Part shown: one piece after another, positions 29,529-33,664 of the stretch | Numbering within the stretch: position 1 is the first letter of the stretch | How the letters are laid out: each line of letters begins with the position of its first letter | From: Stappiaceae bacterium | GTDB taxonomy: Bacteria; Pseudomonadota; Alphaproteobacteria; Rhizobiales; Stappiaceae | Reading direction: 5' to 3' | Assembly: GCA_964291365.2 (NCBI GenBank) | Contig: OZ219975.1 | Span: 693 to 64,692, forward strand | Length of the DNA stretch: 64,000 nucleotides | Translations under genes and position numbers: made by a program | The notes under the pieces: generated by a model | Seen by the model: only the letters and a program-made list of their open reading frames with translations | Told to the model about the DNA's origin: nothing | The model's database searches: none

Positions 29529-29916
29529 ATATACATTTCCATGATCTGTGGGATAGAAACCAGTTATATCCCGGATATGCGTGTATAACATATGGATATT
29601 GTACTCACACCGGGATATAACTATAACCAAGAGTATATGTGACCCGCTATGGAAAAATCGACCATTTGCAAGAAAATATGATTTTGCAGGACAGGGTTCT
29701 AAAGTCGCCAGAACTTTTTTTTTCCAAATTTTTTTCTTGTCATTTTGTGAAAGTATGATCTTTTCTGTGTTCATTCATAAATTTTCATCGCAATATAATG
29801 TTGTTTAACTACTATAACGATCGGGAGAAAGAAGGGACTCTAGTTTTAGCTAGCTACGTGCACGGACTTACAGTAATTATCGATCAATAAAAATCTACAT
29901 GTAGCGGGTAGTCTCC

Positions 29917-30082
29917 ATGACAATACCCGCGCTTAGCTCTCACGCACAGTGCATGCAGGCAGCAATGGCCGACAACATAGCTCGAGCTCTCAACCTTCTT
30001 GGTTCCGACCGCGATCTCTTCAACTCAGCAGACAGAGACGCCTTCCTCGATCTCATTGATGAGTACCTCGACGAACCCGAAG
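29917..30082 (+). CDS. Family-A transposase, exon 1
   Basis: The ATG is at 29917 (MTIPALSSHAQCMQAAMADNIARALN..DEYLDEPE). The donor is G|GTATAG at 30083. Phase 1 joins in frame to exon 2. Confidence 0.6.
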
Positions 30083-30204
30083 GTATAGCCCCACCCTTTA
30101 ATTATCCAGTACCATGTGAATTCAATAATAACATCAAAATCTATGCAAATTATCTACTGTAGACCTAGACGACTCGCTAGCAGTACCTAGTCTCGATCTT
30201 CCAG

Positions 30205-30852
30205 AGGTGGCTGACAGCCCAGGCTCTCCTGAAGTGGATAGCAGGCTTGGTCAGCCAGAGGAAGAGCCTGAGGAAGAGCCCCAGAAAGATGATGACGAGG
30301 AAGAGCCAGCACGTGAGGAGCCAACTGCAGCTGAAATTGTGCAGGCTGGAGTTGCTCGAGGACAGTTAGATGTGGCAAGTGTCCCCATGGACCAACGAGA
30401 GCTGGATGTAACTGAAGAGAGGCTCATCCAGGAGTTTGTACGCGATGGCTGCAAGTGTGACCTTGGTCCAAACTGTAGTCCTTGTTCCACCTCCATCACA
30501 GTTGATCACTTTCGATCATTACGCTGTCAGATGGCTGACCCGACCCATGAGGAGCTGGATTTGGTGGTCATGGGTCAAGTGATGGCTGGCTGCTTCTCGG
30601 CGGAGACATTCCGTAAGCAGGAGAGAAGCAGATCCTTTACCATCTTCTACCACAATGGCACCAGGATCTGCCAGAAGACCTTCCTTTTCCTCCACACCAT
30701 GGGCTACGGGCGCTTTAAGGCTATTAAGGCCAGCTTCATGGCAAATGGAGTGGTTGCTCGAGTCCATGGCAACAAGAGGAAGAGTAGAAGGAAGGACAGG
30801 CTGACACTGCAACAGATTGAGGATGTTGTCCAGTTCGTCATAAACTATGCTG
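30205..30852 (+). CDS. Family-A transposase, exon 2
   Basis: The acceptor is ttccAG at 30203-30204. The frame of ORF 30207-31115 is open (..VADSPGSPEV..CKCDLGPNCSPCSTS..RICQKTFLFLHTMGYGRFKAIKASF..VQFVINYA). The donor G|GTGAGT is at 30853. Confidence 0.7.
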
Positions 30853-30861
30853 GTGAGTGTA

Positions 30862-31095
30862 CAGAGAGAGAGAGAGAGAGAGAGAGAGAGAGAGAGAAAG
30901 AGAGAGAGAGAGAGAAAGAAAGAGAGAGAGAGAGAGAGAGAGAGAGAGAGAGAGAGAGAGAGAGAGAAAGAAAGAGAGAGAGAGAGAGAGAGAGAGAGAG
31001 AGAGAGAAAGAAAGAGAGAGAGAGAGAGAGAGAGAGAGAGGAGAGGAGAGGAGAGAGGAGAGAGAGAGCGAGCTGGGAAGAGAGAGAGAGAGAGA
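30862..31095. repeat. (GA)n microsatellite with periodic AAAG interruptions, inside intron 2
   Basis: Direct read. It is the source of the RERERE and SLSLSL ORF artefacts. Confidence 0.95.
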
Positions 31096-31190
31096 ATGAA
31101 AATTTGGCAGTTTAAGTGCATGTATACCACAACACTGCATTACACTTGAGCTGCAATTGTATACAATAGTTCTATTTCACAACTTACCAG

Positions 31191-31477
31191 ACTCCAACGC
31201 CATGCTGCTACCAGGGAGAGTACCTGGTTACAAGAGCTCAGATGTGAAGCTCCTCCCATCCAGCACCACCAAACACTCCATCTGGGAGCTCTACCTTCAA
31301 GCAGCAGCAAACAGTTCGATGAGGGCGCTGGCATACCCAACCTTCACCCAGCTCTGGCGGCAACTACTCCCCCACATCCTAGTGATGAAGCCAATGAGTG
31401 ATCTGTGTTGGGTATGCCAGCAAAATAGTACTGCCATCATGCGCTCTGCAAATCGCCCTGAAGAGGAGAAGTCAACT
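31191..31477 (+). CDS. Family-A transposase, exon 3
   Basis: The acceptor is ttaccAG at 31189-31190. The phase-1 junction restores the frame of ORF 31157-31516 (DSNAMLLPGRVPGYK..MSDLCWVCQQNSTAIMRSANRPEEEKST). The donor ACT|GTAAGT is at 31478. Confidence 0.7.
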
Positions 31478-31591
31478 GTAAGTACATACATACATGTATG
31501 CATAATGTCACACTAATGTAACTGTATAGTGTGGCTATGGGTGAGCATTAATTAAGTACATAATAATGCACTGTACATAAACATCATGCAG

Positions 31592-32800
31592 ACTATCCGA
31601 CAAGCTGAGCTCCATCTCCTTGACGTGACGACAGAGAGGTCGGTGTATCAAGGAGCACTGGAAAAGGCCAAGTTGTCAGTGGTGCCCTATTTCACCATCG
31701 ACGGCACCTTCTCCCCACCACCACCAGCATCCCAGCGACCAGCCAACAAGACACCCATCTCTGCCCACTACAGTTTCGACATGGCGCAGCAGGTGTTCTA
31801 CCCCAACGACCCCCTCCAGCCCGGCCCAATGTACTTTCTAACACCACGAAAGTGTGCGATTTTTGGAGTGTGCTGTGAGGCCATTCCCCGACAAATCAAT
31901 TACCTCATTGATGAAGCTGTCGATATGGGGAAGGGCTCCAACGCCATCGTCAGCATGCTCCACCACTTCTTCGTACACCATGGGCTGGGTGAGGAGACGG
32001 TACACCTGCACGCCGACAACTGTGGTGGGCAGAACAAGAACGCAACCATGGTGCAGTATCTCCTTTGGCGTGTTATGACCGGTCAACACAAGCACATCAC
32101 GCTCTCGTTCATGATTCCCGGCCATACGAAGTTTAGCCCCGACTGGTGCTTCGGACTCCTCAAGAAGAAGTACAGGAGGACGAAAGTCGGTGGTCTAACG
32201 GACTTGGTCGGGGTCGTGAATGAGTCGGCATCGGTCAACACAGCTCAACCAACAGGACTGGAGGATGGGAGTGTTCTGGTGACCACGTACGACTGGCAGG
32301 AGTACTTCAAGACCTTCTGCACCAAAGACAACGGGATCAAGAAGCTCCACCACCTTCGGTTTGACTCAGCACATCCAGTCTACATCTTTGTGAAGGAGAG
32401 AGCTGAGTCAACCGAAGTGAAGAGGTCGATCTTGAAGGTCAAGTCGTGGTCACCAGTGGCAGGTCAACTACCTCCAGTCCTACCTCCATCAGGTCTCTCC
32501 AACCAGCGGCAGTGGTACTTGTTCCACAAGATCCGTGAGTTCTGCCCGGAGAACTTGAAGGACATCACGTGCCCTCGGCCAGCTGCTCCACCAGAGGATT
32601 CGTCACCTTCGCGGTCACCATCTGCAACACCACCACCAAGTTCAAGCCCCTCATCCACTCCTCTTCTCACCACCACCACCGCTGGGGCCACCTCCACAAC
32701 TACCACCACTGCTACGGATGAGCCTCCAGCCAAACGATCACGGCTCTGTGGAGCATGTCGGCAACCAGGGTACAATGCTCGAACATGCCCTAATAAATAA
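31592..32800 (+). CDS. Family-A transposase, exon 4 (catalytic core and C-terminal knuckle)
   Basis: The acceptor is catgcAG at 31590-31591. The frame of ORF 31586-32800 is open through AHYSFDMAQQVFYP, HLHADNCGGQNKN, FMIPGHTKFSPD (candidate acidic triad regions), a P/S/T-rich tail and CGACRQPGYNARTC. The TAA stop is at 32798-32800. The four exons sum to 2310 nt, giving 769 codons plus the stop. Confidence 0.8.
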   Translation, partial: TIRQAELHLLDVTTERSVYQGALEKAKLSVVPYFTIDGTFSPPPPASQRPANKTPISAHYSFDMAQQVFYPNDPLQPGPMYFLTPRKCAIFGVCCEAIPRQINYLIDEAVDMGKGSNAIVSMLHHFFVHHGLGEETVHLHADNCGGQNKNATMVQYLLWRVMTGQHKHITLSFMIPGHTKFSPDWCFGLLKKKYRRTKVGGLTDLVGVVNESASVNTAQPTGLEDGSVLVTTYDWQEYFKTFCTKDNGIKKLHHLRFDSAHPVYIFVKERAESTEVKRSILKVKSWSPVAGQLPPVLPPSGLSNQRQWYLFHKIREFCPENLKDITCPRPAAPPEDSSPSRSPSATPPPSSSPSSTPLLTTTTAGATSTTTTTATDEPPAKRSRLCGACRQPGYNARTCPNK

Positions 32801-33664
32801 TTATTTTTTATGCTTATTACATGTTCATAGTTCTCTCTCTCTATCTCTTTCTCTCCCTCTCTTTCTCTTTTCTCTCTCTCTCTCTCTCCACATTATTTAT
32901 ATCATCACACTACACCTTGTTTTTGTTGTTGCTGTTGTTGCTGCTGCCGTTAATAGCAGATGACCAGGCTCGTCCCAGGCCCTTTGGCCAGGGTAACAAA
33001 AAGAACCTGAACAAGAGAGATCATACTAAGCCGCGCTTGTACTGAATGTGCTCTAAACATAGCGCACGGTCGCTTAGCTATAGCCTTGAGTATAGATGTA
33101 GTATGCCAACAGCTATACAACTATCCCCATGCTTACCAAAACATAAACAAAAAGCTTCATAGCTAGAAACGATCCCCATAGCCAGCATCATTTTTATCTC
33201 CCTTCATAGATGCCGGCCAGAACGCTAGACTTCACACTGAAAGACAACCCCGCCCCGGCCCAGGACAAGTACACGTAGCCTAACACGAACGAAGGTTAAA
33301 TAGAACCTACGCAGCGTACCTTTCTTAGTGTTCTTGCCTATTCTTCTTCTCCGCCTCAGCTGTCTTTCCCGGCAAATCCATTAAGCCGGTTAACCACGCG
33401 GTGTGACACGGAGCGTATACGGAAACATTGAACGTTGAGCTATGTACGTACAAAACGCTCCGTTTCTCGAAAAATTGTAAACTGAGACACGGGTGACCCG
33501 TGTACGATTTTTAGGCCATAACACGGCCTAGGAACCTTTTTAGAACCTGATTCTTTGACCGTTGACCTCTACAGTAAATTCTGCGTCGATCCATACCAAA
33601 AACGCGAATTTCGTAAAAAAAATTGCAAATGGTAGATTTTCTCATAGCGGGTCACATAATTATA

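Follow-up and report, generated by a model that had tools for sequence, protein, structure and literature searches.

The locus examined here raises the question of which superfamily of DNA transposons its intron-containing transposase gene belongs to, and whether the copy that carries this gene could itself still move. It lies in a stretch of 64,000 nucleotides (the window, positions 693 to 64,692 of contig OZ219975.1, GenBank assembly GCA_964291365.2, Stappiaceae bacterium), in which an element of 4,017 bp, E1, encodes a predicted protein of 769 residues over four proposed exons. An earlier reading of the letters alone (the original prediction) had placed this gene in an element that ends in terminal inverted repeats (TIRs) and had left the superfamily unassigned. 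We can now go further, as E1 is very probably a DNA transposon of the cut-and-paste type that belongs to group Sola1 of the Sola superfamily, an assignment that draws on protein sequence, on a DDD triad, on target-site duplications (TSDs) of 4 bp and on an AWWT target. Judged from its sequence, E1 appears to be a new, distant family inside this known group, with no new superfamily called for. The Sola1 group of the Sola superfamily, which comprises eukaryotic DNA transposons, reportedly goes back to Bao, Jurka, Kapitonov and Jurka in 2009.

Terminal repeats of E1

The inverted repeats that delimit E1 pair positions 29636-29671 with 33623-33658 (36 nt, 92% complementarity), and a 34-nt TIR pattern has three matches in the window and none in 100 shuffles, the third match belonging to a second element, E2. 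A TIR-bounded DNA transposon with a transposase gene is borne out, with the following boundaries.

29639-33655, forward strand: E1, autonomous-type Sola1 element, 4017 bp, termini GTGACC...GGTCAC, defined by the TIR pair and boundaries
29639-29671, forward strand: 5' TIR, GTGACCCGCTATGGAAAAATCGACCATTTGCAA, aligned with the TIRs of relatives in other genomes
33623-33655, reverse strand: 3' TIR, 3 mismatches in 34 nt relative to the 5' TIR
29635-29638: left TSD, ATAT, read from the flank
33656-33659: right TSD, ATAA, matching the left copy at 3 of 4 positions
33487-33503: subterminal palindrome, ACACGGGT-G-ACCCGTGT

The terminal sequence of this element family is GTGACCCGCTATG. The E1 repeats are homologous to those of relatives at three other loci, and the cross-species pattern that they have in common can be written GTGA-N7/8-TGAGAAAA. 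In the subterminal palindrome, which E2 has kept as well (36382-36398), the GTGACCCG motif of the termini recurs; the palindrome may be an extra internal binding site for the transposase. Within the 64-kb window no empty site for E1 was found.

Assignment to the Sola1 group

The defining features of Sola1 were taken second-hand, from PMC3845634, from the supplement of PMC3985635 and from general background. The latter supplement (Majorek et al. 2014, PMC3985635) prints the RNase H cores of Sola1-1_AP, A. pisum XP_003249065, Sola2-1_HM and Sola3-1_HM, and in it the Sola1 core runs in the order ...FDLEKV...YMWDESEGKRGSNEI...FYSDNCGGQNRN...FLERGHTQS (PMC3985635). The blocks of the E1 protein follow in the same order, HYSFDMAQQ / IDEAVDMGKGSNAI / HADNCGGQNKN / FMIPGHTKFSPD, and both published Sola1 cores contain FDL..., WDES.GKRGSNEI, SDNCGGQNRN and GHT.

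The cores were also compared with a hidden Markov model (HMM) of the family, built from the window protein and 120 homologues. This model scores Sola1-1_AP at 30.6 bits and A. pisum XP_003249065 at 29.9 bits, against a best score of 4.9 bits among 4000 shuffled Sola1 cores that served as controls, and the match extends over about 95 residues and is colinear from strand b2 to strand b5. Neither the Sola2 core (2.9 bits) nor the Sola3 core (-1.7 bits) is matched significantly by the family HMM. The Pfam model DUF7869 (PF25273), the only Pfam family found in the E1 protein, likewise matches both of the truncated Sola1 cores, with scores of 25.5 and 24.8 bits, but neither the Sola2 nor the Sola3 core.

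E1 shows all of the Sola1 features that could be tested, namely sequence similarity, a DDD triad in an RNase H-like domain, a 4-bp TSD, an AWWT target and TIRs, while those of Sola2, Sola3 and Tc1/mariner do not fit the E1 family. Sola1 and E1 share the DDD blocks FD..., DE..GK(R)G.N, DNCGGQN(K/R)N and GHT, an RNase H-like core without a large insertion domain, and the association with MITEs (miniature inverted-repeat transposable elements); the E1-family terminus GACCGTxTAT also resembles the TIRs of insect Sola1 elements. E1 differs in that it scores only about 30 bits against the aphid cores, which makes it a distant family within the group, in that its gene is interrupted by two or three introns of spliceosomal type whereas those of its relatives are intronless, and in that the C-terminal CCHC knuckle of some Sola1-type members is degenerate in E1. 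With Sola2 it has in common a short motif at the second Asp, D-G-C-A-G-Q-Y-K-N, but neither the HMM score nor a DUF7869 match. With Tc1/mariner (IS630-Tc1-mariner) it has in common a compact DDD/E RNase H core, a short spacing between the second and third carboxylates, an AT-rich target and MITE derivatives. However, no DDE_1, DDE_3 or Transposase_1 match was obtained at E values up to 1, the E1 protein is twice as long, and the TSD of the E1 family is a 4-bp AWWT rather than strictly TA, with ATTT and AAAT containing no TA at all.

The predicted catalytic core of the transposase

The single Pfam match of the E1 protein covers residues 475-629 (E 2.5e-16, 60.3 bits against a cut-off of 26), and no Pfam model of Tc1/mariner, pogo, PIF, hAT, piggyBac, MULE or rve matches it at E values up to 1. 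Pfam names no function for DUF7869. The model maps on the region from strand b3 to the helix after b5 of a Sola1-type core, together with downstream sequence; as it starts after D430, it covers only two of the three catalytic Asp residues. It now becomes possible to interpret DUF7869 as a portion of the core of the Sola1 transposase.

The original prediction had singled out the blocks AHYSFDMAQQ, HLHADNCGGQNKN and IPGHTKFSPD as holding candidate acidic catalytic residues. All three are present, and conservation across 121 sequences (the window protein and its 120 homologues) agrees with that proposal, the three Asp residues being retained in 120 or 121 of them.

31778-31780, forward strand: codon of D430, predicted first catalytic Asp, in HYSFD at the end of strand b1, conserved in 121/121
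32015-32017, forward strand: codon of D509, predicted second catalytic Asp, in HADNCGGQNKN just after b4, conserved in 121/121 and aligned with SDNCGGQNRN of Sola1-1_AP
32141-32143, forward strand: codon of D551, predicted third catalytic Asp, in GHTKFSPD at the start of the helix after b5, conserved in 120/121

D474/E475 and E501 are also nearly invariant. Upstream of the core, the M[ST]D.C..C motif that had been noted in a paralogue of the same window does recur there, as MSDLCWVC in E1 and MTDYCDTC in the minus-strand paralogue open reading frame (ORF) at 4109-5125, and across the family no fewer than 119 of 120 sequences keep D342, C344 and C347.

An AlphaFold2 model of 653 residues, computed from a 65-sequence alignment, has a mean pLDDT (per-residue model confidence) of 85.5. 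In full-protein numbering its core consists of b1 (421-431), b2 (453-462), b3 (467-474), a1 (482-496), b4 (501-508), a2 (518-529), b5 (535-540) and a3 (549-562), such that D430 ends b1, D509 follows b4 and D551 opens a3. The modelled core follows the canonical RNase H-like DDE/D plan and lacks an insertion domain. A Foldseek search of the PDB with this model gave mostly RNase H-like proteins among the matches listed (TnsB of Tn7 and CAST V-K, Argonaute PIWI, NurA and terminase nucleases), and a search of viral structures yielded no significant match. When the PDB was searched by sequence, neither the protein alone nor a 65-sequence profile brought up a usable match or a solved relative.

Exons and introns of the E1 gene

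The proposed gene joins four exons through GT..AG introns in one frame, and retranslation reproduces this claim: the exons sum to 2310 nt and encode 769 amino acids followed by TAA, with zero internal stops. The three introns, 122, 338 and 114 bp long, begin and end as GTATAG..CAG, GTGAGT..CAG and GTAAGT..CAG, in that order.

29917-30082, forward strand: proposed exon 1, residues 1-55, an ORF with a GT donor and no support from relatives
30205-30852, forward strand: exon 2, residues 56-271, conserved from about M117, with the invariant Cys cluster GCKC...C at residues 138-149
30853-31190, forward strand: predicted intron 2, 338 bp, GTGAGT..CAG, mostly a (GA)n microsatellite
31191-31477, forward strand: exon 3, residues 272-367, with the conserved blocks LPGRVPG and DLCxxC
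31478-31591, forward strand: predicted intron 3, 114 bp, GTAAGT..CAG, GC content 0.33, with an in-frame TAA read from the sequence
31592-32800, forward strand: exon 4, residues 368-769 and the stop codon, with the whole RNase H-like catalytic core, the C-terminal domain and a degenerate zinc knuckle
32792-32797, forward strand: AATAAA polyadenylation-type signal directly before the TAA stop, read from the sequence

Introns 2 and 3 are well supported by sequence. The spliced protein aligns by BLASTP with its best homologue, P0001, at 50% identity over residues 117-769, and this alignment is colinear and gap-free across the exon 2/3 junction (VINYA|DSNAMLLPGR versus LLNYSEQHGLLLPGR) and the exon 3/4 junction; the exons have a GC content of 0.53-0.55 and the introns one of 0.33-0.45 (0.45 for intron 2 and 0.33 for intron 3); and the in-frame TAA in intron 3 means that this intron must be spliced out if the frame is to be read through. 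A tblastn extension that would have moved the start of exon 3 upstream, to 31124, was rejected, as it runs through a stop and duplicates residues from the end of exon 2.

In the 5' part of the gene, none of the 120 homologues shows significant similarity to exon 1, intron 1 or residues 1-116, which are acidic and of low complexity. Since exon 2 has no open frame upstream of 30207, translation would begin in an exon further upstream, as in the proposed model, or else at M117. At four other loci (L001, L002, L003 and L005) the homologous residues lie in one uninterrupted frame, which suggests that the introns are specific to the E1 lineage.

Two repetitive tracts are found within E1, the (GA)n microsatellite at 30860-31095, in intron 2, and a (TC)n-rich tract at 32826-32890, just past the stop codon; the two tracts can pair as long-range inverted repeats, though imperfectly.

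Target sites and passenger elements

Flanks were read with the termini taken as GTGACC...GGTCAC, for seven insertions, four of them in the window and three in other genomes.

E1, window: ATAT / ATAA
E2, window, 36232-38395, reverse strand: non-autonomous relative, 2164 bp, inside a 169-bp satellite monomer, ATTT / ATTT
MITE-a, window, 28853-29528: 676 bp, GTGACC termini, ATAT / ATAT
MITE-b, window, 47761-48427: 667 bp, sharing 79.5% identity with MITE-a, missing in the duplicated copy, CTAT / CTAT
639-642, window: empty site for MITE-b, a single CTAT in the duplicate segment
Relative L001: AAAT / AAAT
Relative L002 (Halichondria): AAAT / AAAT, TIRs identical at 33/33 positions
Relative L003: ATAT / ATAT

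Six of these TSDs are perfect (4/4) and one, that of E1, agrees at 3/4 positions. AWWT fits six of the seven (ATAT three times, AAAT twice and ATTT once), the exception being CTAT, and an AWWT target is the Sola1 hallmark stated in PMC3845634, where Bao et al. 2009 is cited for it. The same source gives an insect Sola1 TIR, GGACCGTTTAT... / GGACCGTTTATTTTGAAAG (PMC3845634), which resembles the terminus of L003, GTGACCGTCTAT... / GTGACCGTCTATGGGAAAAG. A further relative, P0097, is uninformative on the TSD, since all seven of its loci go back to a single insertion into a (TA)n tract, seen as assembly variants.

MITEs with the GTGACC terminus had been reported near E1, one of them as polymorphic between the copies of a duplication, and both observations stand. 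MITE-b is present in one copy of the duplication and is represented by a single CTAT in the other; it was inserted after the segmental duplication, the unique sequence of which is 98.0-98.5% identical between the copies. The deletion derivative that had also been reported is a second element with the same termini, E2, although not a plain deletion derivative: E2 resembles E1 over no more than about 300 bp per end (92% and 78% identity) and has an unrelated interior of 1.58 kb, which makes it a non-autonomous relative. The uninterrupted satellite monomer at the E2 site, GAGCATTTAGGAC / ...GTACCGAGCATTTAGGACTAGCC..., occurs in more than 40 neighbouring monomers.

Relatives in other genomes

The E1 protein has 369 matches in a large protein database. 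The 120 that were listed are all uncharacterised or hypothetical proteins and all carry DUF7869; the named relatives among the matches listed are from two sponges, Halichondria panicea and Dysidea avara, with the gastropod Gigantopelta and the annelid Capitella ranking lower. An exhaustive profile search found 16,668 clusters (50% identity) at E values up to 0.001 and 2,442 at E values up to 1e-30, indicating a family whose members number in the thousands, are divergent and are often truncated. The homologues found in other genomes, too, have TIRs and TSDs at their ends. Our literature search found nothing relevant on DUF7869 or on the GQNKN motif, and for Sola1 in sponges it found only unrelated immunology papers.

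One relative, at positions 3260-6552 of L002 (Halichondria panicea, OY776061.1), has TIRs identical at 33/33 positions, a perfect AAAT TSD and an intronless ORF of 645 aa. From its sequence, L002 looks younger and cleaner than E1, and a better candidate for a Sola1 element that is active. Another, at 2210-7226 of L001, is inserted in a Helitron, with minus-strand genes on either side that encode Helitron_like_N on one flank and PIF1 helicase domains on the other.

Alternative explanations and the state of E1

Several observations weigh against the reading of E1 as a Sola1 element with a spliced gene. The comparison with Sola1 involves two truncated cores of about 125 aa, both from one aphid, and the Foldseek matches are weak (best E 2.3e-4, TM score below 0.2 for the whole 653-aa model), so they support the fold class only. 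Six of the seven insertions are equally readable as TGTGA...TCACA with a 2-bp TSD, under which the mismatch between the flanks of E1 would vanish. All E1 introns are sequence predictions. Finally, residue 436 of E1 is Phe where 118 of 121 sequences have His, and its C-terminal knuckle, CX2CX4HX4C, has Tyr for His, this knuckle being intact in 42 of 120 homologues.

One alternative is that E1 belongs to a superfamily other than Sola1, new or named (Tc1/mariner-like, with a 2-bp TSD), and that the DNCxGQNxN likeness is convergent or very ancient. We consider this highly improbable. The likeness to the Sola1 cores is indeed limited to about 95 residues and 30 bits, 2-bp duplications with TGTGA termini do fit six of seven insertions, and the spacing of 42 residues between D509 and D551 resembles that of DD(34-41)D/E families; yet no Pfam model of the established superfamilies searched is matched, and the Sola1 match is far above the shuffled controls, colinear from b2 to b5 and common to DUF7869. 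Duplications of 2 bp would moreover be TA, TT and AA, as opposed to the strict TA of Tc1/mariner. The CTAT/CTAT flanks of MITE-b, with C adjoining the 3' end, fit only 4 bp and are the only case among the insertions that argues for 4 bp over 2 bp; because of this MITE, its empty site and the published AWWT hallmark (PMC3845634), the 2-bp reading with TGTGACC termini was set aside. Still harder to credit is that the ORF represents a domesticated transposase, now a gene of the host outside any mobile element. An intron-containing open frame is typical of host genes, and NCBI annotates the sponge homologues as 'uncharacterized protein LOC...' genes, but the gene lies between TIRs and a TSD, the same termini occur on non-coding elements of which one has a demonstrated insertion, and the homologues elsewhere are TIR- and TSD-bounded, one of them inside a Helitron, in a family whose many members are divergent and often truncated. 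The original prediction had allowed that homology searches might reveal a host gene; with TIRs and a TSD around the gene, that outcome is not favoured. It is also very unlikely, in our estimate, that 30853-31190 and 31478-31591 are insertions that break a continuous ORF, making the E1 gene a pseudogene. The uninterrupted frames of L001, L002, L003 and L005 and the (GA)n content of intron 2 are what such an origin would lead one to expect, whereas both interruptions have strong donors (GTGAGT and GTAAGT), CAG ends and a GC content (0.45 and 0.33) below that of the exons, and their removal restores the frame and the gap-free alignment to P0001 at both junctions. Two independent insertions would be very unlikely to satisfy all of this by chance.

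A closer contender, to which we give a little less than an even chance, is that E1 is a Sola1 element but a dead one, its frame still open since the copy is fairly young and the MITEs having been moved by other genomic copies. This would account for the Phe at 436 and the Tyr in the knuckle, for the one TSD mismatch and the TIRs that differ at 3/34 positions, for the E2 ends that are only 78-92% identical to those of E1, and for the TIRs of MITE-b, which resemble MITE-a more than E1. In favour of a functional copy, 769 codons run over four exons without a stop or frameshift, the three catalytic Asp residues are all retained along with nearly every other invariant position, Phe at 436 recurs in one further homologue, and the knuckle is absent in two thirds of homologues and is perhaps dispensable. 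The two substitutions and the TSD mismatch leave the activity of E1 unproven, so that the earlier description of the gene as apparently intact holds for its open reading frame and does not extend to the near-invariant His, the knuckle or the termini. The earlier view of a recently active family fares similarly. It is upheld by the insertion of MITE-b after the duplication and does not carry over to E1 itself, since the MITE-b TIRs are closer to MITE-a than to E1.

Proposed mechanism

For E1 as a Sola1 element, the reading with the best support is an ordinary DDD cycle of cut and paste. The single E1 gene would give rise to a transposase of about 650-770 aa, the Cys-rich N-terminal part of which may bind the terminal repeats, GTGACC...TGAGAAAA. 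Two stretches, the Cys cluster at 138-149 and the DLCxxC block at 342-347, could serve as DNA-binding or zinc elements. D430, D509 and D551, to judge from the fold and their conservation, would coordinate the metal ions needed to cleave DNA and transfer strands. Cutting of an AWWT target with a stagger of 4 bp would account for the observed duplications of that length. E2 and both MITEs (about 670 bp), having the same termini, are likely passengers of a transposase of the E1 family, which would move them in trans.

The surrounding window

The segmental duplication relates 1-8255 of the window to 46445-55981, and copy 2 has two insertions that copy 1 does not have. Besides MITE-b, this is a 674-bp insertion at 46684-47357, with an empty site near 239 in copy 1; its termini, CTCAGCACACTTAAGG... 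and ...CCTTAACTGCATTGAG, belong to a TIR family different from the Sola1 elements. A MITE-like unit of 351 bp at 33678-34028, with 52-nt inverted repeats of 83% complementarity, begins 22 bp beyond the right end of E1 and is unrelated to the Sola1 termini. The 169-bp satellite that hosts E2 in one monomer, together with a variant of 123 bp, occupies much of the window, in numerous arrays (about 5460-8700, 9365-10355, 14590-16730, 35988-36231, 38395-40563, 53260-55981, 57276-58360, 59866-61054 and 62788-64000). The window also contains a second, distant Sola1-like gene on the minus strand at 2894-4825, with a duplicate at 50569-52576, in which the motifs ISADYQQ, FLDNA and GHTKFAPD are recognisable. 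Its homologous parts share one frame, with about 1.05 kb intervening precisely where the motif of the second catalytic Asp falls; a long intron or an insertion is possible there.

Meaning of the assignment

The main value of these results lies in annotation, in that the DNCxGQNKN / GHTKFxPD signature and Pfam DUF7869 belong to the DDD transposase of Sola1. The window further offers a small case study, in which an autonomous-type copy, a non-autonomous relative in a satellite and two MITEs occur together with an insertion and its empty site in a 98%-identical duplicate. One could imagine a fuller history, in which a Sola1 lineage gained spliceosomal introns in a conserved ORF that is intronless in its relatives and was mobile after a duplication diverged by about 2%; we regard this combination as rather unlikely.

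We know of no experimental or biochemical study of a Sola transposase, and, with no solved relative in the PDB, intact copies have some value as candidates for characterisation, of which better ones than E1 exist, such as L002. If the spliced E1 protein is active, E1 and the cleaner Halichondria copy would make a Sola transposase testable in the laboratory, and Pfam DUF7869 would also gain a function.

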